Source: an uncultured Gammaproteobacteria bacterium (GTDB lineage: Bacteria; Patescibacteriota; Patescibacteriia; Patescibacteriales; GWE2-39-37). From it: a DNA stretch of 46,824 nt. A program made the translations under genes and the position numbers. Numbering within the stretch: position 1 is the stretch's first letter; each line of letters begins with the position of its first letter. The stretch is taken from assembly GCA_964443495.1 (NCBI GenBank), contig CAYUCS010000001.1:535496-582319 (forward strand). The letters run 5' to 3'. Below are positions 1,857 to 42,753 of this stretch, piece by piece. The notes under the pieces were generated by a model. It was given only the letters and a program-made list of their open reading frames with translations. It had not been told where the DNA came from and did no database searches.

Positions 1857-2822
1857 CTAGTTCTTTAGCCGCTTGCCGGAGTGGAATTTTTGGTGGACAT
1901 CGCGGAGTTGCTTGTTGGTTACATGAGTATAGATTTGGGTGGTGGAGATGTTGGCGTGGCCTAAGAACTCCTGGACAAGCCTCAGGTCGACGCCTTGCGA
2001 TAGCAGGTCGGTCGCATAGGAGTGACGCAAAGTATGCGGGCTGGACATGATCGGTAGTCCGGAAATTTTGATGTATTTCTTGACGATATTTTCTATGGAA
2101 CGGACTGTCAGTCGGCGCGACTCGCTTTTCAGCTGGGCGGTCGTGAAATTGATGAACAGGGCAGGGTCCATATCGGAGCGCTTGGCCAGATATTTCGAAA
2201 GCCACTGCACTGTACGCTCGGAAAAATAAACCGTACGGACCTTACTGCCTTTGCCCGTGATACTGATTTCCAAAAAGGTGTTGCTCCCCGGCTTGATCTT
2301 CAGTTGGTCGCGGTCAAGCCGTGTCAGCTCGGCCACACGCAAGCCGGTTGAAAATAGGGTTTCGAGGATGGCACGGTCACGCAGGCCGCTGACCGAGTCG
2401 GTATCGGGCGCCAGAAGCAATTTTTCGATTTGGTCGATTTTCAGGAAGGTGACTTGCTTGTCAGATTTCTCTTTGGCCAATTTGATTTTGTCAGGCGGCA
2501 GGGAAGTGATGTCCTTTTCGACGAAGTAGGACAAAAGATTGCGCAGGGCGATAAGGTAGTAGTTTTGCGTGCTCTTCTTCAAGTTCGCCCTGCTCTGCTC
2601 GCTTTGATGGCGCGATAGGTGTAGGCGGTATTTCCAGATGTGATCGGCTGTCAGTTGGCTTGGTTTGAGTTCGGCCAGATCGGAATCCTCGAGCCAATCA
2701 AAAAATTTCTTTAAGAATCTGGAATAATTTTTTTGCGACTCGGAAGCCAGACCTTTTTCTATCTCTAGATAGTCCAGGAAGTCATAGAGGTAGTCGATTA
2801 TCGGTTTTTGTGACTTACTCAT
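1857..2822 (-). CDS. XerC/XerD-family site-specific tyrosine recombinase
   Basis: Catalytic set intact: TGLRVAEL (R), GKGSK (K), HTLRH (HxxR), LGHANISTTQIYTH (H, Y). N-terminal SAM-like domain present. ATG 2822 preferred over TTG 2834. Confidence 0.93.
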   Translation of the reverse strand: MSKSQKPIIDYLYDFLDYLEIEKGLASESQKNYSRFLKKFFDWLEDSDLAELKPSQLTADHIWKYRLHLSRHQSEQSRANLKKSTQNYYLIALRNLLSYFVEKDITSLPPDKIKLAKEKSDKQVTFLKIDQIEKLLLAPDTDSVSGLRDRAILETLFSTGLRVAELTRLDRDQLKIKPGSNTFLEISITGKGSKVRTVYFSERTVQWLSKYLAKRSDMDPALFINFTTAQLKSESRRLTVRSIENIVKKYIKISGLPIMSSPHTLRHSYATDLLSQGVDLRLVQEFLGHANISTTQIYTHVTNKQLRDVHQKFHSGKRLKN

Positions 2823-2878
2823 GGGGCGGGGCAATATTTTTTAGCTAAGGTTAGGTATAGTTATACCACCCCTATGCC

Positions 2879-3169: not shown

Positions 3170-3283
3170 TTTTTGAAAAATTAGGAGGGAACTACCGCTT
3201 CCCTTCGGGCTTAATAAATCGGCGGGCACTTGCGGCCCTCGCACTTCTCTTCCTTAATTTTAGCACAGGGAAGCCGCAGATTC

Positions 3284-3325
3284 AATAAACAAAAACGAGC
3301 TTTTGAAAGCTCGTTTTTGTTTATT
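3284..3325. terminator. Intrinsic terminator (20-bp perfect inverted repeat)
   Basis: AATAAACAAAAACGAGCTTT-TG-AAAGCTCGTTTTTGTTTATT, 8 bp after the stop of the cytochrome b5 gene. Confidence 0.85.
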
Positions 3326-3333
3326 GGAAGGTC

Positions 3334-17957: not shown

Positions 17958-17992
17958 AACAAACAACCTCCGATAATCGGAGGTTGTTTGTT
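17958..17992. terminator. Intrinsic terminator after rpsI
   Basis: AACAAACAACCTCCGAT-A-ATCGGAGGTTGTTTGTT 17-bp inverted repeat. Confidence 0.85.
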
Positions 17993-24313: not shown

Positions 24314-24406
24314 ATTTTTTATTTGGTAATAAGAATAAATTAATTATACTGATTTTCGCATTTTTTTCAAGGATTTAGTCGTTACGCGTGCTGGGTGATT
24401 TAAAAC

Positions 24407-24477
24407 GCTCAGTCTTAGGATAGTTTTACTGCTTAGACGAGTACGTATGCGCATTAAAAACTATCCTAAGACTGAGC
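24407..24477. repeat. Intergenic hairpin element copy A
   Basis: 21-bp perfect inverted repeat GCTCAGTCTTAGGATAGTTTT around core ACTGCTTAGACGAGTACGTATGCGCATTA. Confidence 0.9.
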
Positions 24478-24513
24478 TGATGTTGGATATTATAAATTAA
24501 AAGAATGATTATT

Positions 24514-24559
24514 AAAAAGAGAGGCCGGTCGATCATCCTCTCGGTAGAATCGCCGGCCT
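24514..24559 (-). terminator. Terminator-like hairpin after the micro-ORF pair
   Basis: AGGCCGG/CCGGCCT stem with an alternative GAGAGG/CCTCTC pairing, followed on the minus strand by TTTTT. Confidence 0.55.
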
Positions 24560-24563
24560 GTAG

Positions 24564-24614
24564 TCAGCAGCCTTCTTTGCAGTGGTTTACCCCTGCGATA
24601 TTCAGTTTCCTCAT
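24564..24614 (-). CDS. Candidate 16-aa micro-ORF
   Basis: MRKLNIAGVNHCKEGC*, preceded by AAAGGAGGTGATCC (24630-24617), 14 nt complementary to the canonical 16S 3' tail. Confidence 0.4.
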   Translation of the reverse strand: MRKLNIAGVNHCKEGC

Positions 24615-24648
24615 TAGGATCACCTCCTTTCGTGGTTTCGGTGCCGGT

Positions 24649-24795
24649 TCAAGGGTTGCCGCCGTTGTGCGTCGGGCCATGGACCTGGCAGGTGTGATGG
24701 ATTAGCTCGCTTTTCTTGCGGTAGGTGCCGCAAGTGCAAGGCGCTTTCTTGACCGTAACGATCGGTGTGTGGTTGGAAAACGGACTTTTCGGCAT
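24649..24795 (-). CDS. Candidate 48-aa Cys/His-rich small protein
   Basis: MPKSPFSNHTPIVTVKKAPCTCGTYRKKSELIHHTCQVHGPTHNGGNP*. SD AAAGGAGG at 24807-24800. Starts 16 bp after the mnmA stop. Confidence 0.5.
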   Translation of the reverse strand: MPKSPFSNHTPIVTVKKAPCTCGTYRKKSELIHHTCQVHGPTHNGGNP

Positions 24796-24811
24796 TTCCC
24801 CTCCTTTGCTA

Positions 24812-25885
24812 TCAGGATATGATACCGCCGCCTATTACGGCGTCATCTTGGTAGAAGACTACGCTTTGCCCTGGCGTGATGGCGCGCTGGGGCGTTTTGA
24901 AATGAACATTATATGAATTCCCTGTCCGGTCAATCGTGACTTCGCAGGGTTTGTGGCGGTAACGGATAACGGCTTGGCAGTCGAATGGCACGGCCGGCTG
25001 CTCTCCGCTCCAGGAAATCTCGTTCACTTGGAGTCGGTCGCGGTAGAGCTCCGGGCCTTCGCCGTTGCTGGTAACATACAGTATATTTTTCGGATAATCA
25101 AATCCGGCGACATAAAAGGGGCCGATGCCGCCGATTTCCACGCCTTTGCGCTGACCAATGGTATAAAGCGGCAAGCCCTTGTGTTCGCCGACCGTCTGGC
25201 CCTCCAGGGTGATGATGGGCCCGGATTGGAGGTCGAGGTGGCGCTTCAAGAAGTCGTTATGGTCGTTCGAGCCGACGAAGCAAATCTCCTGGCTCTCCGG
25301 TTTGGAAGCAGTGGTCAGGCCGAAGCGCTCAGCCAGTTCCCTGACCTCGGGCTTGGTCAAGTTGGCCAAAGGAAAGATGATTCGCTTGAGCTTGTCTTCG
25401 GTCAAGGTGTAAAGGAAGTAGGTTTGATCCTTGTTCAGGTCTGTCGGACGGGCGAGTTGCAGATGTCCGTCGCGCTCGACGATGCGGGCGTAATGGCCCG
25501 TGGCGACGGCGTCGAAACCGAGTTCTTCTGCCTTCTTCAGGATCGCGTCGAACTTGATGTATTTGTTGCAGGCAACGCAAGGATTCGGCGTATTGCCCCG
25601 TTGATATTCAAGCAGGAATTCATCGACGATCTGCCGTTTGAATTGATCGTCGAGGTTGAGGGTATATAAAGGAAACCCCAGCTGGTTGGCGACTCGGCGG
25701 GCGTCATTGAATGATTCGACGGAGCAGCATTTGTTGGTTTGGGCTTGATTGAGGCTCTCCTCGGCCCAGAAATGCATGAAAATACCCATGAGCTCATGCC
25801 CCTGTTCCTTAAGCAAAGCGGCGGCGACCGAAGAATCCACGCCGCCGGACATCGCGATTATGATTTTTTTACCCTCATTTTGCAT
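24812..25885 (-). CDS. mnmA: tRNA 2-thiouridine(34) synthase
   Basis: AMSGGVDSSVAA PP-loop, TPNPCVACN..IKF, ATGHYAR, KDQTYFL, ESQEICF, GLPLYTIGQR, RAITPGQSVVFY. Confidence 0.98.
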   Translation of the reverse strand: MQNEGKKIIIAMSGGVDSSVAAALLKEQGHELMGIFMHFWAEESLNQAQTNKCCSVESFNDARRVANQLGFPLYTLNLDDQFKRQIVDEFLLEYQRGNTPNPCVACNKYIKFDAILKKAEELGFDAVATGHYARIVERDGHLQLARPTDLNKDQTYFLYTLTEDKLKRIIFPLANLTKPEVRELAERFGLTTASKPESQEICFVGSNDHNDFLKRHLDLQSGPIITLEGQTVGEHKGLPLYTIGQRKGVEIGGIGPFYVAGFDYPKNILYVTSNGEGPELYRDRLQVNEISWSGEQPAVPFDCQAVIRYRHKPCEVTIDRTGNSYNVHFKTPQRAITPGQSVVFYQDDAVIGGGIIS

Positions 25886-25913
25886 AAATGCTTTATACTA
25901 CATTATCCTATTC

Positions 25914-25941
25914 TTGACAAATCCTAGGATAATGTCATAAT
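25914..25941 (+). promoter_or_regulatory. sigma70-type promoter with no downstream ORF
   Basis: TTGACA (25914-25919), 16-bp spacer, TGt-CATAAT (25933-25941). Confidence 0.55.
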
Positions 25942-25946
25942 AGCAT

Positions 25947-26041
25947 TGCCGTAAACTTTGCTTTGCAAAAACCCGCTCCTTCCACCGCGAAGCAAAAAAC
26001 CCTCCTAGGGGTGCAGTCACCAGCTGCACCCCATTTTTTTT
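25947..26041 (+). ncRNA. Candidate ~90-nt small RNA
   Basis: Bounded by the promoter above and a GC-rich terminator GGGGTGCAG/CTGCACCCC + T8 (26008-26041). Internal stem TTTGCTT/AAGCAAA. C-rich loop. No ORF. Confidence 0.5.
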
Positions 26042-26044
26042 CAA

Positions 26045-26078
26045 AAACAAAAGCGACCCGTCTGGGTCGCTTTTGTTT
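26045..26078. terminator. Intrinsic terminator of the CAP-domain gene
   Basis: AAACAAAAGCGACCC-GTCT-GGGTCGCTTTTGTTT 15-bp inverted repeat. Confidence 0.85.
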
Positions 26079-26087
26079 GGTGTAATT

Positions 26088-27614
26088 TTAGAGAAGTATC
26101 AGTAAGGCTATCAGGCTCATGAAGCCGACGGTGCTGGCGATCAAGCGCGGGTGCTGCTTGTTGAAGGCGACAAAGATATTGAAGGTCAGTGCGACCATGG
26201 CCAGGAGCAAGAGCACGAGGTAATAAGATGACGTGAAGGAGAAAATCGAGGAAGTGACGCCCGGCTGGTGATTCTTGGCGTATTGGTACTGCTTGACGTA
26301 AGTGGTGGCGGTCGGCTTCAGATTGCTGGCGTTGATATCGGTATTGGTCTTATTGCCATCCTTGTCCCAGACCGTGAGCACGGCGGGTACGACCGCGTCA
26401 GCTGGGTTCGGCTTTTCGGTATAGATCAGCTGATTGGTGCCCCAGAGGCCGGAGTTGGGATTGATCAACTCAAGGTCGATGATGCGGCCGTTGACCGTGA
26501 TCTGAGCCTTGGTCGTTTCTTTTGGCACGAAGGCTTCGCTTTGGATCAGCAATTTGCCGGTCTGCGGCTGATTGATGAATAAGCTGACTTTCGGCTGGCC
26601 GTCGGCGGTAAGCTGCGGCTCTGCCGGCACGGCCGGCGTCGGAGCGATTTCAGTCTCTTTGACTCCGAGAACCTGCTCGGTCGGTTCGATATTGGCAATG
26701 ACAGGATTCAATTTTTGAGGATTAGCGGCGGCGGCCACGACCTTGCCCATCAGCTTCTTGGTTCTTATGGCAGGAGAATCGTTTTTGGCGATGACGCTCG
26801 GATCCGGTTTGGCGAAGAACTGGGCGACAAAGGTGGTGTCGGTGCCGTCATAGGCGCCGGCTACGCTCGAAACGCCGATTTCTTGGAATTCAGGATCGAC
26901 CAGGTTGGCGTAATGGGTCGGGCTTTGGCGCCAGCCCAGCATGACGTCGGCAGCGCTGGTGAAGCCCATGGCCAAGTTCTCGCCGGCGACGGCGTAAGGA
27001 TATTCAGCCATGGCGAGCCAATTGGAGAGGCCGACTTTTTCCGGGCTGATATGGGCAAAATACTGCTTGATGAGCATGTCCTGGGCCTTAAGGTAAGACG
27101 CCTGGCTTAGTCGTTGGCTGACCTTGAGCTCGTTCAGGTTGGCCTCGCGGCGGATTTGGTTGGTGAATTTGATGATCTGCTGGTTCTGGGCAGTCAGCTC
27201 TTCCGGAGCTAGCCAAGCTTCGACTGGGAAGCTGACCAGGATCAGGAGGGTGACGATCTTGATGACTACGGCCGAAGTGGCGTGGAAAGCCAAGCGCTGC
27301 GGATGCAGAGCGTGCGGATGGTAGCCGTTGCCCTCGTGCGGAATGAATAAGTCTTTTATCTTACCGGTCTTGGCATGAGGCTTGCCGACGGTAGCGTGCA
27401 GCTTCGAAGCTGGCGCTTTTTCGGCTGGAGCCTTGAGGTTGGCCAATGACAAAGCAGTCGGCACTGATGGTGCGACGGGAGCTTTGATGACCGGTTCGGT
27501 TGCGGTGAGATCTGCGAAGATGTCTTGCTTGGCGCTCGGCTCTTTGGTGAAAGTATCGAGCTTATTTTTTTCCAGCAAGAATTCCGCGAATGATAGAAAT
27601 TCTTTTTGTGACAT
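26088..27614 (-). CDS. Membrane-anchored CAP/SCP-domain protein
   Basis: FIPHEGNGYHPHALH then a TM helix. CAP motifs TNQIRREANL, KAQDM..KQYFAH, AGENLA, GWRQSPTHYANL...FQEIGV. Two C-terminal TMs. Confidence 0.88.
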   Translation of the reverse strand: MSQKEFLSFAEFLLEKNKLDTFTKEPSAKQDIFADLTATEPVIKAPVAPSVPTALSLANLKAPAEKAPASKLHATVGKPHAKTGKIKDLFIPHEGNGYHPHALHPQRLAFHATSAVVIKIVTLLILVSFPVEAWLAPEELTAQNQQIIKFTNQIRREANLNELKVSQRLSQASYLKAQDMLIKQYFAHISPEKVGLSNWLAMAEYPYAVAGENLAMGFTSAADVMLGWRQSPTHYANLVDPEFQEIGVSSVAGAYDGTDTTFVAQFFAKPDPSVIAKNDSPAIRTKKLMGKVVAAAANPQKLNPVIANIEPTEQVLGVKETEIAPTPAVPAEPQLTADGQPKVSLFINQPQTGKLLIQSEAFVPKETTKAQITVNGRIIDLELINPNSGLWGTNQLIYTEKPNPADAVVPAVLTVWDKDGNKTNTDINASNLKPTATTYVKQYQYAKNHQPGVTSSIFSFTSSYYLVLLLLAMVALTFNIFVAFNKQHPRLIASTVGFMSLIALLILL

Positions 27615-27753
27615 GTTGATATTATAGCAACTTTCGGCAAACCAGGCAAAGTCCGATAAACAAAAGGTTTGAAGCCGCTAATCGGCGAGGTTTTTCGTTG
27701 AAAAACAAGGGGTGTTGATATCTTATACTAAAAAATTTGTCGGAGGGTAATAA

Positions 27754-27834
27754 TTTTCCAGCTTATGGAATTGATTTTTCCTGCTTAGGACGAGTACGTA
27801 TGCGCGATAAAAATAAATTCCATAAGCTGGAAAA
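27754..27834. repeat. Intergenic hairpin element copy B
   Basis: 26-bp inverted repeat (1 mismatch) TTTTCCAGCTTATGGAATTGATTTTT around core CCTGCTTAGGACGAGTACGTATGCGCGAT. Confidence 0.9.
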
Positions 27835-27845
27835 AGCACCTTTCC

Positions 27846-28976
27846 TTACAAAGCACCCGATGCGATATCTTGGCGCACGCGTTCCATTAAGCGGATATAG
27901 AACTCGACGTTGTTCAAGGTGGCTAGGCGCAGGCCGAGGGGTTCGTTGATCTTGTATAGATAATTCAAGTAGCCGAGGGTGTACTTGCGCAGCGCCGGGA
28001 TTTTCGAGTCCGGGTTGATGGGGCGTTTGTCGCTGGCGAATTTGCTGTTGGTGATATTGATAGTGTCGTAGAAATTCTTACTTGAAAGGCTCTTGCCCTT
28101 GGCGAACTGGAAGAGGCGGCCGTGGCGGCCTTCGCGCGTTGGGATGACGCAGTCAAACATGTCTATTCCCTGCTTGACGGCGTGGACGATCTGCTCCGGG
28201 TAGCCGACACCCATGAGGTAACGCGGCTTGTCGGCCGGCAAGAGCGGCGTCAGCTCGGATAGCATGGCGTCCATCTGCTCACTGGTCTCGCCAACGGCCA
28301 GGCCGCCGATGTTGTAGCCGTCGAAGTCGAGCGCAGCCAGTTCGGCCAAGCTCTGCTTGCGCAAGTCGATATCGAGGCCGCCTTGGATGACGGCGTGGAC
28401 TAGCGGCTTATTCTTGATTTTCTTCAATTCCTTCTTGGTGCGCTCGGCCCACTTGGTAGTGATTTCGACCGAGCGCTTAAGCTTCTTCTCGTCGGCCGGC
28501 AAGGCGACGCATTGGTCGAGGCAGACGGCGATGTCCACGCCGAGTTCGGCCTGGATGCGCAAAGCGCGCTCCGGGGTCAGCAAGTGCTTAGAGCCGTCGA
28601 CGTAGGAACGGAACTCGACGCCGTTGTCGGTAATTTTGACTAATCCCTCTCCCGTGCGTTTCTTGGTGCCGGCCAAGGAAAAGACCTGGAAGCCGCCCGA
28701 GTCGGTCAGGATGCTGCCCTGCCAGTCGACGAAGGTGTGCAGCCCGCCCATCTTCTTGACGTGCGCCGAACCAGGTCGGAGCATCAAGTGGTAGGTGTTG
28801 GAGAGGATGATCTGCGAACCGAGCTGGCGGATTTCCTCGGTGGTGACGTGCTTCAACACGCCCTGCGTCGCCACCGGCATGAAAAACGGCGTATTTAAAA
28901 CGCCATGAGCGGTCTTGTATTTGCCCACGCGCGCTTTTGATTTTTTGGAAGTTTTAGCGACGGAGAATGGTTTCAT
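27846..28976 (-). CDS. tgt: tRNA-guanine transglycosylase
   Basis: TPFFMPVAT.G, ILSNTYHL..RPG, ILTDSGGFQVFSL, PRYLMGVGYP, GIDMFDCVIPTREGRHG. Confidence 0.97.
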   Translation of the reverse strand: MKPFSVAKTSKKSKARVGKYKTAHGVLNTPFFMPVATQGVLKHVTTEEIRQLGSQIILSNTYHLMLRPGSAHVKKMGGLHTFVDWQGSILTDSGGFQVFSLAGTKKRTGEGLVKITDNGVEFRSYVDGSKHLLTPERALRIQAELGVDIAVCLDQCVALPADEKKLKRSVEITTKWAERTKKELKKIKNKPLVHAVIQGGLDIDLRKQSLAELAALDFDGYNIGGLAVGETSEQMDAMLSELTPLLPADKPRYLMGVGYPEQIVHAVKQGIDMFDCVIPTREGRHGRLFQFAKGKSLSSKNFYDTINITNSKFASDKRPINPDSKIPALRKYTLGYLNYLYKINEPLGLRLATLNNVEFYIRLMERVRQDIASGAL

Positions 28977-28991
28977 GTTTGTTTATGGAAG

Positions 28992-29019
28992 TTGACAACC
29001 TGCGGGTATTTGTTAGTAT
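28992..29019 (+). promoter_or_regulatory. sigma70-type promoter of the pilin-like gene
   Basis: TTGACA (28992-28997), 16-bp spacer, TGt-TAGTAT. Confidence 0.5.
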
Positions 29020-29068
29020 TTGACGACACTGAAATCGTGTCAAATTTCTTTCGAAGGAGGAGGAAGCA

Positions 29069-29371
29069 ATGTTGAGGAAAAATAATGGTTTCACGCTCGT
29101 TGAACTTTTGATCTCCATGGTGTTCGTCGGAATAATCGTTGGATGGTTCCTGTGCTATCTCGTCTTGGGTAAGGGCAATTTCTGGTACACCGAAGAAGGT
29201 GTCCTGAAAGAGCTTCGGGTGACCAGGCCGAACGTGACAGAGATCGTCAAGACCCAACGGAATGTCTTTTCCAAGTCCGTGATAACGGTCAAAGAGGATG
29301 GGGCAATCCGCGACTTTTGCCTCGACAGCGACATCTTCTGGAATTACGAATTCTCTGACTGCTCAAAGTAA
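29069..29371 (+). CDS. Type IV pilin/pseudopilin-like protein with prepilin N-terminal motif
   Basis: MLRKNNG|FTLVELLISMVFVGIIVG is a class III signal peptide with Glu at +5. C-terminal Cys pair. SD AAGGAGGAGG at 29054-29063. Confidence 0.75.
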   Translation: MLRKNNGFTLVELLISMVFVGIIVGWFLCYLVLGKGNFWYTEEGVLKELRVTRPNVTEIVKTQRNVFSKSVITVKEDGAIRDFCLDSDIFWNYEFSDCSK

Positions 29372-29392
29372 GCCAGTCGGCGATTTTCGGCG

Positions 29393-29421
29393 CCCCGGGT
29401 GAAATATCCCGGGGTATTTTT
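29393..29421 (+). terminator. Intrinsic terminator after the pilin-like gene
   Basis: CCCCGGG-TGAAATAT-CCCGGGG followed by TATTTTT. Confidence 0.75.
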
Positions 29422-29656
29422 ATTTGCGGCTTTGCTTGAGCATTATGGCGCTTAGGATGAAAGCCGTCAAGAAGAAGAGCGCGCCGTAGAAGCATGGGGT
29501 AAAGACCGGATTGACCACCTGCCCTGCCGTGCAGGAAAACTGGCACGGCTTCTGGTTGAGGTAGTTGTATGTTTCCAATCCAAGATTAGTCCAAGCAAAA
29601 ATCGTGCCGAGCAGCAGGACGATGAATTGGGTGAAAACTAATTTTTTACTAGGCAT
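29420..29656 (-). CDS. Small two-TM membrane protein with three Cys in the loop region
   Basis: TM1, loop PCQFSC, then TPCFYGALFFL and TM2. Possibly DsbB/VKOR-like but unproven. Confidence 0.6.
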   Translation of the reverse strand: MPSKKLVFTQFIVLLLGTIFAWTNLGLETYNYLNQKPCQFSCTAGQVVNPVFTPCFYGALFFLTAFILSAIMLKQSRK

Positions 29657-29660
29657 AGAT

Positions 29661-30566
29661 TTAATTAAAAGGAAGTCTGATTTGTATTGCAGCGCTTCTG
29701 TGCTCCAAGACGTCTATTATCGCATATTCTGTTTTTATGGATCCATTATAAAGCGATTGCCTCATTTTTGCCCTTACTTTAAGTAAGTCATCCTTTGCAA
29801 AAACTGTTTCATTTTGTTGGACTTTTAGGTTGAATTCCTCATCAAGAATATCTGCATAAAAAGTTGCGTTTCCATCACTAAATCTCCACTTACCGTCTCT
29901 TTGAAAAGAAATATTAACAATCTGCAAGTTCATTTCAACTTCTTTTTCATCAATTACCTCTTCTTCAATTTCTGGCGCCTTGAAATATTCAATTTGTTCT
30001 TTTCTAATCTGTGTAGTTGCATTATTTTCTCCCTCGGATATAAATTCAATCTTTTCAACCCCTTCGTTATTTAAGGGCTTAACGATAGCTTCTATTTTTT
30101 TTCTTATGCACAGTGAACTGAACAGCGTTATTTCTTTTTCATTAGTGTATCTTATTTCACCATCCTCCGCTTCAATTTTGAAATCACTTCCTTCAATTCT
30201 GCTGACAGACTTTATTTTTCTATTTCTAACCCAAGCAATTAGACCAATAAGTCCACCACCACCTCCTAAGCCTAGCATGACTAAAAGCTCCTTTGCGTTA
30301 ACTATGGCAGTTGCAGTGTCGGAACTGAAAAGTGTTCGTGCTACTTCGATGGCGTTTTGAATAACGGATAAATCAATATTGAGGGACCCTGGATGGGTCG
30401 CTTTTATGTTTACTACTACTTTTACCTTTTCGCCATTAATTATTTTATTTGTTTCTTCAAGAAGTTCTCCTAATGAAAGAAGTGCTGGCGCCAAATCTTT
30501 GACATCCATTTCATTATTACTGAGCGCCGGACCATCATAAGAAATTTTAAAATTTTCTCTGCTCAT
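29661..30566 (-). CDS. AT-rich, probably horizontally acquired uncharacterised protein
   Basis: 301-aa ORF, visibly AT-richer than its neighbours. N-terminus YDGPALSNNEMDVKDLAPALL. Confidence 0.8.
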   Translation of the reverse strand: MSRENFKISYDGPALSNNEMDVKDLAPALLSLGELLEETNKIINGEKVKVVVNIKATHPGSLNIDLSVIQNAIEVARTLFSSDTATAIVNAKELLVMLGLGGGGGLIGLIAWVRNRKIKSVSRIEGSDFKIEAEDGEIRYTNEKEITLFSSLCIRKKIEAIVKPLNNEGVEKIEFISEGENNATTQIRKEQIEYFKAPEIEEEVIDEKEVEMNLQIVNISFQRDGKWRFSDGNATFYADILDEEFNLKVQQNETVFAKDDLLKVRAKMRQSLYNGSIKTEYAIIDVLEHRSAAIQIRLPFN

Positions 30567-30589
30567 AATTTCACTGTATAATTTGTATT

Positions 30590-32578
30590 TTATTGCACCC
30601 TCCCATCATCCGTCACCGCGTCGTCATCTTCGAGTTTGGTGGTTTTGGCTTTGGTGGTCTTGTTGATACGGGTCTGAGTTGTCGTGTCGATGGCTTCGAT
30701 GGTCGAGCCAGGCAGCAGCACCAGCATCTTGTTTTTGTCCTCATCGCTCGGGGCGATGGTGATGCTGAACTCGGCTTCGGCTTTGTAAACCGAGATCGGC
30801 AAGCGGCCGATCTGCCAGGTGATGTTCCCTGTCGCCTGGTCGTAGCTGACCGAGCCGACGTCGGAGCGGTTGCGTCCGTCCCATTTGACGTAAGGCGGCA
30901 GCTTGGTGGTGATCTTGAGGTCGTTCAATTCGTTCAGGTTGTTCGACAAGTGCCAATAGACGCGGTAACTCGTGGCTTCGCCGACTTTCGGCGGCAGCGG
31001 GCCGGAGCCGACTGCGATGTTGTCGTCGTTGAAGTAGCGTATCTCCTCTTTCAAGGAAAGATCCGAGTTGATCTTGTTGGTGATGGCGTTGCTGCGGTCG
31101 CTCGTCTCCTCGGTGGAGGTGGCGTCGGTCGAAGTCGAAGCGCCGATCTGGAAGCGGGCGTAGCTCTTGATCTGATAGTTCTTGGTCGGGTCGATTTCGC
31201 CGGCCGGCTTGACCTTGATCGAGAAGTCGATCGTGCCCTCGTTGCCCGGCGCCAAGTCGGCCAAGCCCGGGATCTGGGCGCTGCTCCAGGTGATGCGCTG
31301 GTTGCCGGCCTGGCCCTGGTTCTTGTCGGCGAGGCTCGACCAGTCGAGGAAGTCGCTCTCGAGCGAGGCCATGATGACCACCTCTTTCATATTGGCTTCG
31401 CCCTTGTTGGCGTAGGTGATGGTGTAGTTCATCGTCTGGCCGAAGTCCACGCCTTGGTCGTTCTGCGAGCCGTTGATGATGAGGTTCAGGTTCAGGTTCT
31501 TGGTGATGACGTTGAACGGCAGCGGTTTCTTCAGGAAGGTGATGTATTTCTGCCCGTCTGGCGAGTAGTCGAAGACCAAGTTGATTTCCTGCTTGTCGGT
31601 CGTCTTTTGTTTGAATTTGAATTTAATAGCTAAGCTCTTCTCTTCGACGGTGGTGCTGGCGATTTGCCAGGAGGTGGTAGAGGCCGAGCCGGTGGCGGCG
31701 CCGATGATCTCGATGTTGTCGGCTGGCTCGATGCTCAGCCGGTAATCGGACATGAAGGATTTTTCCTGCGCTTTGTATTTGACGGTGATGGCGTTGGTTT
31801 CGCCAACCAGGACGTTGGCCGGGTAATCGAAATTGAAGTCGAGGCCGAGGCCGGAGATTTTCGAGTTGAAGCTGGCCTCTTTGGAAAATTCCGAAGAGAA
31901 GTTGGCTGGCTGGTAGGACATGCTGGCCAGGAAGATGGCGCTCTGATCGACTTCGCCGACGATGCGGCCTTTGATGGTGATTTGGTCGGAGCGCTTGCTG
32001 CCGAGGAGGTCGAAGTGCCAGGTCGTGCCGGTGGCCGCTTGCGGCTGCATTTCGGTGACGATGAAGTTCTCGGGCAGCGTCGCCTTGATGTTGATATTCT
32101 TCATATCAACCTGGTCGAGATTCTTGTAGCTGATGACGTAGGTCTTCTCTTCGCCCAAAAGCGTCTCGGCGTCGCCCGTAATCGTGAGGCTGACCGAGCT
32201 GTTTTCCTGGACCTGCTTGGTCAGGTAGAAACGGTAGGCGCTCCAACCGGCGCCGCCGATCAGCGCCAAGGTCAGAAGCATGATGAAGCCGCGGTAGATG
32301 AGGCCGTGTCCTTTTTTCATAACCATTGTTTTAACGTCAACCATATTGCCGTCTTCGTCGTGGTAGATTTCTTCGAGGCCGGCATCGATCTGGCTCTGGC
32401 GGACTTCGTTCTGAACGAATTCCTCGAACTCTTCGGTCTCGGTGGTGTTCGGCAGGTTGCGTTCGACGAATTCGCTCACTGCCGACTGCTCGTTCTTAAG
32501 CACGACGTCTTTCTCCTCCGCGGCTGGAGGTGCGGGGGCTGGCGCGATGTTTTTGCCTGTCTTTTTTGGTTTTGGCAT
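30590..32578 (-). CDS. Membrane-anchored multi beta-sandwich (DUF11/Ig-like) surface protein
   Basis: Acidic N-terminus, single TM, repeated beta-rich domains (YVISYKNL, YTITYANKG, YRVYWHLSNN). Confidence 0.75.
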   Translation of the reverse strand: MPKPKKTGKNIAPAPAPPAAEEKDVVLKNEQSAVSEFVERNLPNTTETEEFEEFVQNEVRQSQIDAGLEEIYHDEDGNMVDVKTMVMKKGHGLIYRGFIMLLTLALIGGAGWSAYRFYLTKQVQENSSVSLTITGDAETLLGEEKTYVISYKNLDQVDMKNINIKATLPENFIVTEMQPQAATGTTWHFDLLGSKRSDQITIKGRIVGEVDQSAIFLASMSYQPANFSSEFSKEASFNSKISGLGLDFNFDYPANVLVGETNAITVKYKAQEKSFMSDYRLSIEPADNIEIIGAATGSASTTSWQIASTTVEEKSLAIKFKFKQKTTDKQEINLVFDYSPDGQKYITFLKKPLPFNVITKNLNLNLIINGSQNDQGVDFGQTMNYTITYANKGEANMKEVVIMASLESDFLDWSSLADKNQGQAGNQRITWSSAQIPGLADLAPGNEGTIDFSIKVKPAGEIDPTKNYQIKSYARFQIGASTSTDATSTEETSDRSNAITNKINSDLSLKEEIRYFNDDNIAVGSGPLPPKVGEATSYRVYWHLSNNLNELNDLKITTKLPPYVKWDGRNRSDVGSVSYDQATGNITWQIGRLPISVYKAEAEFSITIAPSDEDKNKMLVLLPGSTIEAIDTTTQTRINKTTKAKTTKLEDDDAVTDDGRVQ

Positions 32579-32626
32579 ATGGTATTTGAGATTTTTAATT
32601 GCGTATCAATTGTCAGCTTCAGTGCC

Positions 32627-32695
32627 GGCTTTTGGAAATATTTTTTACTGCTTAGGGCGTGTACGCATGCGCGATAAAAAACATTTCCAAAAGCC
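32627..32695. repeat. Intergenic hairpin element copy C
   Basis: 20-bp inverted repeat (1 mismatch) GGCTTTTGGAAATATTTTTT around variant core ACTGCTTAGGGCGTGTACGCATGCGCGAT. Confidence 0.9.
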
Positions 32696-32706
32696 TCGCG
32701 TGGATA

Positions 32707-32780
32707 TACATCTTTTGAGAGTTGATTTTCCTGCTTAGACGAGTACGTATGCGCGATAAAATCAACTCTCAAAAGATGTA
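32707..32780. repeat. Intergenic hairpin element copy D (tandem with C)
   Basis: 23-bp perfect inverted repeat TACATCTTTTGAGAGTTGATTTT around core CCTGCTTAGACGAGTACGTATGCGCGAT. Confidence 0.9.
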
Positions 32781-41597: not shown

Positions 41598-41606
41598 CAT
41601 AAATCA

Positions 41607-41633
41607 CAAAAGCCCTCTTCTAGAGGGCTTTTG
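41607..41633. terminator. Bidirectional terminator between convergent genes
   Basis: CAAAAGCCCTCT-TCT-AGAGGGCTTTTG. The GT4 stop codon (41620-41622) lies within the hairpin. Confidence 0.8.
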
Positions 41634-42753
41634 TTTTATCTAATAGTATTTCTACATATCGTTCGGCCGACAAAACTTTATCGTCTGGCAGCTTTTGGGT
41701 GCGCTCATGGGTCTTTGACAGCGCGCTGGCCAATGATCGCGCATCGCCGGGCTTGAAGAGATTCTGGCGGCTAGTGATCAGTTCCGGAATGCCGCCGATA
41801 TCCGCAGCGATGACAGGCAGCAGTTTGGCCATCGCCTCATAGATGACTGTCGGCGAATTCTCATAGCACAGGGACGGCACGACAAGCACAGAGCTTCGTT
41901 CCATTTCGGAGGCGACCTGTCCGGGGCTTAGCCGGCCGAGGAATATAATGCGATGATCCTTTTCCGAGGCTTCGGCAACCAAGCGTTCAAGCGAACCGCT
42001 GCCAGCCACCTTGAGGCGGTAGTTATCAGGAAGCAGGTCCATGGCTTCGAGGAGCAGTTTGATGCCTTTATGCGGCTCAAGCTGGCCGACGTAAAGGCAT
42101 TCGGCAACAGGAGCAAGCTGCGGCGCAACCGCGGCCCGGCTGAAGCTGACCGGATTAGGGATGACCGCATTGGAGCAGTCTTTGAAAAAGCCTCGCTTCA
42201 AGTGAAGGTCGAGCAGCCATTGCGAAGGTGAAATGACAAGAGAGGCGTTTGAGAAGATTGAGCGGTTGAGCTTCTGGTAGCAGCGGGCTGAAGCGCTGTC
42301 TATGATCCCCTCCTTTCCCCACATCAGGAGGCCTGAGGGGTGGAGCAGTTGGATGTCGTGCAGGACGTGAACATGCCCGATCCCGCTCGACTTGATCGCT
42401 CGCATCGACGACAAGCCGATGCCGATCAAGTTATTGGTTATGATCAGGTCGGGCGAAAAACCTTTTATGATTTTCTTGGTTTGCCGGCACGCTGAAACGT
42501 CGAGGTAGCCCAAAAGATGATAGATGAGGCGCGATGGCTTGGGCAGCTTGCCAAGGTTGTAAAACAACGAGGGCAAGCCGGATATATAAGCGACGTCCGA
42601 CGCCTCGGTTCGCTTGCCGCCTCTTGGCAGGGTCGTGGCGACCAGGACTTCGTTCCCTTGCGTCTTGAGTCCGTTCGCGATCGTTTCAACCACCCTCTCT
42701 GCCCCGCCCTTGGAAAACGGACGGTATAGATTGTTGAGTATTAATATCTTCAT
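41620..42753 (-). CDS. Glycosyltransferase family 4
   Basis: GGAERVV, YVGQLEPHKG, CYENSPTVIYEAMA..LPVIAADIGGIPE. Confidence 0.92.
   Translation of the reverse strand: MKILILNNLYRPFSKGGAERVVETIANGLKTQGNEVLVATTLPRGGKRTEASDVAYISGLPSLFYNLGKLPKPSRLIYHLLGYLDVSACRQTKKIIKGFSPDLIITNNLIGIGLSSMRAIKSSGIGHVHVLHDIQLLHPSGLLMWGKEGIIDSASARCYQKLNRSIFSNASLVISPSQWLLDLHLKRGFFKDCSNAVIPNPVSFSRAAVAPQLAPVAECLYVGQLEPHKGIKLLLEAMDLLPDNYRLKVAGSGSLERLVAEASEKDHRIIFLGRLSPGQVASEMERSSVLVVPSLCYENSPTVIYEAMAKLLPVIAADIGGIPELITSRQNLFKPGDARSLASALSKTHERTQKLPDDKVLSAERYVEILLDKTKAL

Follow-up and report, generated by a model that had tools for sequence, protein, structure and literature searches.

Four palindromes with a common apex

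The subject of this analysis is a set of four intergenic palindromes, designated elements A to D, within a 46,824-nucleotide stretch (hereafter the window) of contig CAYUCS010000001.1 from GenBank assembly GCA_964443495.1. The window is chromosomal and of housekeeping character. It encodes ribosomal proteins, RpoA, IF-1, SerRS, AlaRS, MnmA, TGT, and TruD, together with glycosyltransferases and an ABC-2 transporter, and nearly all of its genes lie on the minus strand. An initial annotation, made from the sequence alone, had described four same-strand hairpin elements here, and its placement of them agrees with both an inverted-repeat search and a match to their common core sequence. Relevant coordinates are provided in Table 1.

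When the short-range inverted repeats of the window are ranked by length, elements A to D account for four of the top five. Their layout is as first described, namely a conserved apex carried by self-complementary arms that vary from copy to copy; the bases of the four stems, for example, read GCTCAG, TTTTCC, GGCTTT, and ACATCT. The core, CTGCTTAG(G)RCGNGTACGYATGCGC, occurs at only four places in the window when three or fewer mismatches are allowed, and it gave no match in 100 dinucleotide-preserving shuffles. A filter-free scan of the window with the covariance model described below revealed no further or degenerate copy. For both strands, the folding z-scores relative to shuffled sequences range from -4.5 to -9.5 as RNA and from -5.2 to -10.7 as DNA.

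Element B is positioned 11 nt past the TGT stop codon (27846) in the direction of the gene, and element D lies 12 nt past the stop codon (32793) of a gene encoding a DUF4012 protein. These distances, as well as the 11 bp that separate C from D, are those reported originally. Element C is situated 49 nt upstream of the start codon of a DUF11 gene, whereas element A falls between two minus-strand features, a canonical terminator (~24513-24560) and the AlaRS promoter (24343-24370). It had also been claimed that neither a target-site duplication nor a U tract accompanies the hairpins. The first part of that claim stands, as no target-site duplication flanks any of the window hairpins. The second part is correct for B, C, and D, after which there is no T run on either strand, but not for copy A, which on the gene-sense strand is followed by a weak U tract, UUUUAAAU.

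Ordinary bidirectional terminator-like palindromes are also found in the window (Table 1). The ordinary window terminators have arms of 21 bp or less, loops of 1-4 nt, G+C-rich stems, and flanking A and T runs. The element model gives the first of the listed palindromes a score of 24 bits on the strength of its hairpin alone. Elements A to D differ from intrinsic terminators in that the loop is 27-29 nt in length and in that they are not called by a terminator scan.

Table 1 Coordinates of the palindromic elements, their orthologues, and neighboring features. Positions without a contig name refer to the window.
Feature	Position	Strand	Description
Element A	24407..24477	+	arms 24407-24427 / 24457-24477, 21 nt, 100% complementary; 29 nt between; apex 24428-24456 (ACTGCTTAGACGAGTACGTATGCGCATTA)
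Element A orthologues	L005:536-613, L075:14872-14949		
Element B	27754..27834	+	arms 27754-27779 / 27809-27834, 26 nt, 96%, one G.A mismatch; apex 27780-27808, 29 nt (CCTGCTTAGGACGAGTACGTATGCGCGAT)
Element B orthologue	L002:129-206		
Element C	32627..32695	+	arms 32627-32647 / 32675-32695, 21 nt, 95%, one A.C mismatch; apex 32648-32674, 27 nt, GCG-TGTA-CGC apical hairpin
Element C orthologue	L008:4920-4998		one arm decayed
Element D	32707..32780	+	arms 32707-32729 / 32758-32780, 23 nt, 100%; apex 32730-32757, 28 nt (CCTGCTTAGACGAGTACGTATGCGCGAT)
Element D orthologues	L008:4838-4915, L075:7256-7333		
Element at TrpRS site, truncated	L079:2451-2495		Logan contig end
Terminator-like palindromes	3283-3326, 17958-17992, 26045-26078, 41606-41634		bidirectional
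XerC/D-like tyrosine recombinase	1857-2834		22 kb from the elements
MnmA/AlaRS interval	24478-24811	-	small open reading frames and hairpin (24513-24584)
Small open reading frames	28984-29422		~440 bp; 94 and 85 aa
301-aa gene	29661-30566	-	between elements B and C/D
tRNA-Pro(CGG)	L001:1462-1533	-	24 nt downstream of the L001 element
Insertion at the spot of B	L075:11132-11740		115-aa open reading frame and hairpin

Orthologous copies in related genomes

Eight JGI metagenome contigs matched an exact scan with the degenerate core, and syntenic loci were retrieved under protein guidance from NCBI assembly GCA_013336275.1 (TGT 94% identical) and from two additional relatives (TGT 88% and 85% identical). 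A covariance model built from 11 copies recovers 14 full copies and, weakly (24 bits), the divergent copy on contig L006. The 14 aligned copies occupy seven sites in three related genomes, namely those of the window, the JGI Ga0209749 population, and GCA_013336275.1. The L006 copy constitutes the eighth site and contains an intact core with GCG/CGC, flanked by 10-bp arms that are unrelated to those of the other copies. The elements thus have further copies in related contigs, and, with the window included, the eight genomic sites are A, B, C, and D, a position after the TrpRS gene (L003, L078, and L079), the spacer between a small membrane-protein gene and that for tRNA-Pro (L001 and L004), L007, and L006. 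Over three long stretches there are seven copies per 89 kb (~1 per 13 kb), which by extrapolation would correspond to some tens of copies per genome. Given that these palindromes break short-read assemblies, the copy numbers in metagenome-assembled genomes will be underestimated.

The closest public relatives are labeled Candidatus Falkowbacteria (Patescibacteria). In other Patescibacteria, ~640 kb of loci around TGT were scanned with covariance model R1, and none contained a member. No exact match to the degenerate core is present in the GTDB species representatives, a set that does not contain the carrier GCA_013336275.1, or in IMG/VR; looser half-core scans of IMG/VR yielded 87 loci (827 kb), none of which is a true match according to the covariance model. 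A blastn search of phage and plasmid records produced chance matches or none, and literal strings of the element sequences had no match among 8 million papers. When the whole window was searched with Rfam 15 at gathering thresholds there were no matches, and in E-value mode only generic long-hairpin matches appeared (miRNA precursors, and RNA-OUT with 23.9 bits against a cut-off of 41). The elements form a lineage-restricted family of non-coding palindromic repeats that, as had been proposed with respect to Rfam and REP families, matches no described RNA or repeat family.

The apex folds into a small bulged hairpin in which an apical stem of 3 bp is capped by an NNTA tetraloop and two conserved blocks, CTGCTTAG and ATGCGC, lie opposite each other; both blocks are invariant across the aligned copies. 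One apical stem pair is A-U in 11 copies, G-C in two (one orthologous pair), and G.U in one, and it is likewise G-C in the L006 copy. The change from ACG/CGT to GCG/CGC noticed earlier in copy C is real. The tetraloop reads AGTA, GGTA, TGTA, or ATTA, and in B, C, and L007 a single G is inserted into the predicted internal loop. Strong covariation, another feature of the first description, is borne out by two-sided changes in 21 of the 32 pairs and by standard pairs in 93% of the alignment cells, versus 72% in shuffles and 30-51% with slid partners; the alignment was fitted to the model, so that these counts lean towards structure, but the raw sequences agree with them. A folded strand tolerates the indel and the apical covariation more easily than would a rigid duplex site, and a folded form, rather than a duplex site, thus more easily fits the covariation, the varying tetraloop, and the G insertion. 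Viewed as a linear sequence, the 28-bp core displays partial dyad symmetry (GC..A..ACG-NNNN-CGT.T..GC) and divides into segments of 9 + 10 + 9. Most arms contain CTT at 13-17 nt from the core. A short peptide starting at the ATG of ATGCGC was also considered and rejected: there is no Shine-Dalgarno sequence and, by inspection, neither the frames nor the lengths are conserved.

A comparison of orthologous sites reveals very different histories for the apex and the arms. At the four-fold degenerate sites of the flanking genes the window differs by 30-36% from Ga0209749 and by 31-56% from GCA_013336275.1. The apex, in nine orthologous comparisons, differs at 0-1 of its 28 columns. Moreover, variants peculiar to one site are retained: all three genomes have GCGCATT at site A, and the site C variant, GGGCGTGTACGC (GCG-TGTA-CGC), is kept across species. 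Since such site-specific variants are inherited, neither homogenization among copies nor recent insertion explains the conservation of the apex. These comparisons indicate that purifying selection holds the apex at each locus.

In the orthologous arms, by contrast with this, 0-76% of the positions have changed, nearly always on both sides. At site A the changed arm pairs number 9/21, 13/22, and 16/21 in three comparisons, all of them two-sided. The corresponding values are 5/22 for B, 0-3/22 for D, and 3/22 for the TrpRS site. Overall there are 51 two-sided and 10 one-sided changes, with five of the latter in the decaying L008 copy of C, and the two-sided changes include transversions. Among the ~286 arm pairs of 13 intact copies only five mismatches are observed. 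The orthologues show that the arms evolve by compensated change. In the L008 copy, the Ga0209749 orthologue of C, one arm and ~60 nt of flanking sequence are strongly diverged, whereas the core and the other arm are identical to those in the window; it represents either a decaying copy or a local recombination breakpoint.

How the arms are kept matched can be approached from what selection on folding would be expected to produce. A helix of 22 bp is barely destabilized by one mismatch, and consequently selection on folding alone would leave many mismatches in place. It would also be expected to hold the arms well below the neutral rate. The combination of near-neutral arm divergence with near-perfect pairing argues for copying from arm to arm rather than for selection on each pair, and in this respect the earlier suggestion of conversion within the hairpin fits the data better than does selection on pairing. 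Template switching at quasi-palindromes during replication is an established mutational mechanism. Templated correction of this type would require that the hairpin form in single-stranded DNA.

The copies are polymorphic between close relatives, as is evident from occupied and empty orthologous spacers. In GCA_013336275.1 (contig L075), A and D are present, B and C are absent, and a different insertion of ~490 nt is located at the spot of B. In the relative whose TGT is 88% identical (L076), B, C, and D are absent; the TGT-CAP spacer is 118 nt versus 231 nt in the window, and the DUF4012-DUF11 spacer is 15 nt versus 214 nt. In the more distant relative (L009, TGT 85%), both A and B are missing, and ordinary terminators are found in their places. 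Element B is absent at the syntenic spot in L010 as well. The extra DNA always exceeds the hairpin, with 10-45 nt of unrelated sequence per side. A possible ATTAA microhomology that brackets the entire C/D segment (135-200 nt) is the sole repeat, and it could equally reflect a deletion in L076. As judged from these spacers, copies turn over between close relatives, and the elements may be mobile. The insertion in L075 contains a 115-aa open reading frame on the opposite strand, with no family matches, and a G+C-rich hairpin. Given the different insertions found there, the 3' side of TGT is an insertion hotspot.

Orientation and the form proposed to be recognized

According to the initial annotation, all copies have the same orientation and lie between co-directional genes. 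This holds in the window but not in the related contigs. The core is antisense to the flanking genes at five sites (A, B, C, D, and L007) and sense at three, namely after the TrpRS gene (L003 and L078), before the tRNA-Pro gene (L001), and after a NUDIX gene (L006). In contig L001 a 405-aa open reading frame starts right after the tRNA. Because the asymmetry of the apex is invariant whereas its orientation is mixed, one sequence-specific reader of mRNA could not serve all of the sites. In addition, copy A has a conserved hairpin-plus-T5 terminator on its upstream side and a near-consensus AlaRS promoter (TTGAAA-16-TATAAT) on its downstream side. For the L007 copy, a canonical terminator with eight T at its end is located 20 nt upstream, and the next promoter follows downstream. 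Both copies are probably outside of the main transcription units.

The orientation was also compared with replication by way of the coding-strand GC skew at four-fold sites, with genes of the two strands contrasted. In the window the skew is -0.33 for the minus-strand genes and -0.16 for the plus-strand genes, whereas for L078 it is -0.21 for the plus-strand genes and -0.38 for the minus-strand genes. The plus-strand genes of L075, from the same genome as L078, have a value of -0.45, which differs from that of the L078 plus-strand genes with a Mann-Whitney p of 0.0002. The values for L001 and L007 are -0.07 and -0.32, respectively. In these four regions (window/L075, L078, L001, and L007), those for which a strand effect could be told apart from a coding effect, the strand carrying CTGCTTAG is the G-richer one, a result that is suggestive, and only suggestive, of an apex orientation that follows the replication strand. 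Almost all of the window genes, including those for the ribosomal proteins and RpoA, are on the C-rich strand. The gene block of the window may lie on the lagging strand, which would be unusual, or, alternatively, codon bias may dominate the skew.

From these data we tentatively favor, with a confidence that falls somewhat short of an even chance for the account as a whole, the following model of REP-like DNA palindromes. Each 70-80 bp palindrome would fold into a long hairpin when one strand becomes free. The apex would serve as a sequence-specific module recognized by a putative trans-acting protein, and the arms, which need only pair, would drift at rates reaching roughly the neutral one. 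During replication, templated correction inside the folded palindrome would either copy a change from one arm to the other or revert it. What is read would more likely be folded single-stranded DNA on one replication template than mRNA, given that the apex is asymmetric, occurs in both orientations with respect to genes, and can sit outside of transcription units. Copies are gained and lost between close relatives, and any effect on mRNA 3' ends, whether as a hairpin barrier or as an RNase III substrate, would be secondary.

The elements resemble REPs and REPINs in that they are short, dispersed, extragenic hairpin repeats, vertically inherited and lineage-restricted, with possible effects on mRNA 3' ends, and for both the form that is read is probably folded single-stranded DNA. 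A REP is a palindrome of 20-40 bp. What REPs have in common is the stem, together with a terminal GTAG or CGTC tag (PMC3733652). In the present elements neither the outer ends nor the stems agree between any of the sites, and it is the loop that is conserved; CGTC is found only inside the apex, on the minus strand, rather than as an end tag. There is no RAYT (Y1 HUH) gene among the Pfam-scanned open reading frames of the 47-kb window, and the density of copies is below that of typical REP-rich genomes. An HUH-mobilized unit, as suggested in the initial annotation, may nevertheless be an alternative, although no HUH or other transposase gene is encoded in the 47 kb. The nick-site hairpins of HUH Rep proteins and the ssoA single-strand origins, which have CS-6 in the loop, share with the elements a conserved loop on a variable stem and, putatively, a single-stranded DNA form and a dependence on replication orientation. 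They differ in being single plasmid or virus sites beside a rep gene, whereas the copies here are many and chromosomal and are not accompanied by a rep gene. Neither the nonanucleotide nor the CS-6 motif (TAGCGT), in the forms that we take them to have, is present in the elements. Finally, attC sites, like the elements in the model above, are imperfect palindromes recognized by structure rather than by sequence and folded from one DNA strand. They conserve the base (RYYYAAC...GTTRRRY, R''/R') and vary at the apex, the opposite of the layout here. The housekeeping neighbors, the lack of cassette arrays, and a recombinase score below the integron-integrase cut-off likewise set the elements apart from attC.

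Several observations weigh against the model of folded single-stranded DNA. Two conserved G.T positions in the apex make good pairs only if the core-plus strand is present as RNA. Of the eight sites, five or six are located 11-26 nt after a stop codon, the usual place of an mRNA 3' hairpin. Transition-type arm mismatches in copy C, L003, and the L075 copy of D read as G.U in gene-sense RNA, whereas two in L006 are opposite. The skew argument involves few genes with a per-gene standard deviation of 0.10-0.14, and it is confounded by the codon bias of highly expressed (ribosomal) genes. A Pfam scan of the open reading frames of the window revealed no transposase, RAYT/HUH, reverse transcriptase, Cas, or Nop-domain gene. 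Lastly, the edges of the insertions are imprecise, target-site duplications are lacking, and similar arms are not shared by any two copies, a picture that does not speak for recent mobility of the whole unit.

The main rival, which we regard as unlikely without discounting it, is a cis-acting mRNA element, a hairpin transcribed at the 3' end of the upstream gene that would function as a terminator, a barrier to 3' exonucleases, or an RNase III site and whose loop would be bound by a specific RNA-binding protein. It would account for the start of the B, D, TrpRS, L001, and L006 copies 11-26 nt past a stop codon, for the three mismatches that become G.U in sense RNA, and for the covariation of the structure. 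Where relatives lack element B, the position is either taken by an ordinary terminator or left empty, and a perfect duplex of 20-26 bp is, as is well established, a good substrate for RNase III. The proposal of an mRNA processing or stabilizing site, made at the outset, is nevertheless weakened by the mixed orientation of the core, because at three of the eight sites the asymmetric loop reads as its reverse complement and a single RNA-binding protein could not recognize all of them. It is weakened further by the positions of A and L007 after canonical terminators. In addition, a U tract is missing from B, C, and D, none of which is called by the terminator scan, and the perfection of the arms is beyond what RNA folding needs. 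Arms acting as paired convergent terminators that insulate the core were also considered and were rejected, as an internal hairpin before a T run is present only in B, L001, and L002.

Independent small RNAs expressed from the core-plus strand, snoRNA-like or tigRNA-like with a fixed guide and working with a Nop-domain or other protein from elsewhere in the genome, appear improbable. The attraction of this explanation lies in architecture. The stem-loop TIGR units of Candidate Phyla Radiation (CPR) bacteria have variable palindromic stems that are conserved only next to the loop, with a secondary hairpin between spacers and CUU in the stem (PMC12045711; bioRxiv 10.64898/2026.09.09.750476). The elements, from the same phylum, likewise have variable palindromic stems, a loop arranged as segment, small hairpin, and segment (9 + 10 + 9), and CTT in most arms. 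The apex G.U pairs function only in the core-plus strand, and an orientation independent of the neighbors fits separate genes. The differences, however, are substantial. TIGR units are arrayed beside a Nop-domain tas gene, whereas the elements are dispersed among housekeeping genes, no window open reading frame matches PF01798/Nop, and the window proteins of 301 and 637 aa, which have no significant Pfam match, show no sequence match to the solved Tas structures. Spacers vary between TIGR units, whereas the equivalent segments are invariant in 14 copies here. An apex of 27-29 nt is too short for 14 + loop + 14, so that two 14-nt boxC-9nt-boxD intervals do not fit. The box motifs themselves are absent in register on either strand (box C, CNA/CUU, and box D, YG, with a spacer of 8-10 nt between them in TIGR units), and the symmetry is that of a dyad rather than of a direct repeat. 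There is no composite 18-bp target with two or fewer mismatches in the window. Membership in TIGR-Tas was rejected on the basis of the window gene content, the invariant "spacers", the box spacing and register, and the target search. For small RNAs in general, neither a common -35/-10 promoter upstream nor a terminator downstream is found on the core-plus strand.

A purely selfish MITE-like or REP-like repeat, with an apex conserved only by recent spread or by conversion between copies, is similarly given little credence. The elements are, indeed, dispersed, intergenic, lineage-restricted, and present or absent between close relatives. They also resemble Correia/NEMIS elements and other MITEs (miniature inverted-repeat transposable elements) in being intergenic, in a size of ~70-150 bp, and in long inverted repeats that fold once transcribed. 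RNase III cleaves the Correia hairpins. MITEs, however, have conserved terminal inverted repeats and target-site duplications, neither of which is found here, and the arms are unrelated between sites. There are no near-identical copies and no conserved ends. The orthologues keep the apex while the arms and four-fold sites have diverged by 30-50%, and the inheritance of site-specific variants argues against homogenization.

We also assign a low probability to a duplex-DNA protein site, such as an operator, a roadblock to transcription or replication, or a Xer-type site of 11 + 6 + 11 bp, for which the arms would be incidental. The 28-bp core has partial dyad symmetry, such a site would work in either orientation to genes, and a XerC/D-like recombinase is encoded in the window. 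The dif site, in the consensus we assume, has 11-bp XerC and XerD arms (XerD approximately TTATGTTAAAT) around a 6-bp center, and the reverse-strand GCGCATA presumably resembles the XerC arm of E. coli dif. The other arm is unlike the conserved XerD arm, and dif is single-copy, whereas four copies are found here in 8.4 kb. A 1-bp insertion in one half-site at three sites, together with the apical covariation, is ill-suited to a rigid duplex, and the perfect complementarity of arms of 20-26 bp would be left unexplained. A dif/Xer site was rejected on the copy number, the XerD arm, and the indel.

An assembly artefact, such as chimeric fold-back contigs, is effectively refuted because the same loci are present in independent JGI, NCBI, and Logan assemblies with diverged arms, even though one Logan contig (L079) terminates in mid-element at the TrpRS site.

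Neighboring features and implications

Other features of the window deserve comment. The XerC/D-like tyrosine recombinase scores 93 bits, as compared to the 265-bit cut-off for integron integrases. For the 301-aa protein, the gene of which separates element B from C/D, the matches are to NCBIfam NF053583, "LAPAL motif-containing putative phage structural protein" (8e-76), and, among the PADLOC candidate defense genes, to PDC-S42 (1e-94). Its gene is absent between the DUF11 and TGT genes in L009, L075, and L076 and thus represents an accessory insertion. Close to it is a segment of ~440 bp whose small open reading frames have no family matches and which is missing from the otherwise collinear Ga0209749 contig L002. 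The MnmA/AlaRS interval contains a 48-aa Cys-rich open reading frame and, preceded by a strong Shine-Dalgarno sequence, one of 16 aa, MRKLNIAGVNHCKEGC. The corresponding sequence in L009 is MLRKRYMLRAVAHCSNGC, and the two have a common HCxxGC end. The long terminator-like hairpin of this interval is 82% identical to that in L009. The interval could encode a leader peptide or correspond to a gene for a small peptide.

Many bacteria harbor dispersed palindromic repeats. To our knowledge, the described families all conserve their stems or ends. The logic of the present family is inverted, in that strong purifying selection acts on the loop at each locus, with the stems at liberty to change as long as they remain paired. 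The orthologues from three genomes provide an unusually clean natural experiment on the maintenance of long palindromes. If the elements are merely 3' hairpins, they add only modestly to the known bacterial repeats. An apex that serves as a protein-recognition module, however, would signify a new nucleic-acid-binding activity in CPR bacteria, which have tiny genomes and are not growable alone. One possibility, which we consider doubtful, is a new CPR system (REP/RAYT-like, recombinase, or replication-associated) in which a protein reads the asymmetric 28-nt apex, held up by a hairpin whose stem sequence is arbitrary, on the single-stranded DNA of one replication template, or one that employs fixed-guide RNAs related to tigRNAs or snoRNAs, with the arms kept by palindrome-templated correction. 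If the apex is indeed recognized by a protein, its motif would provide a simple handle for finding that partner by co-occurrence.

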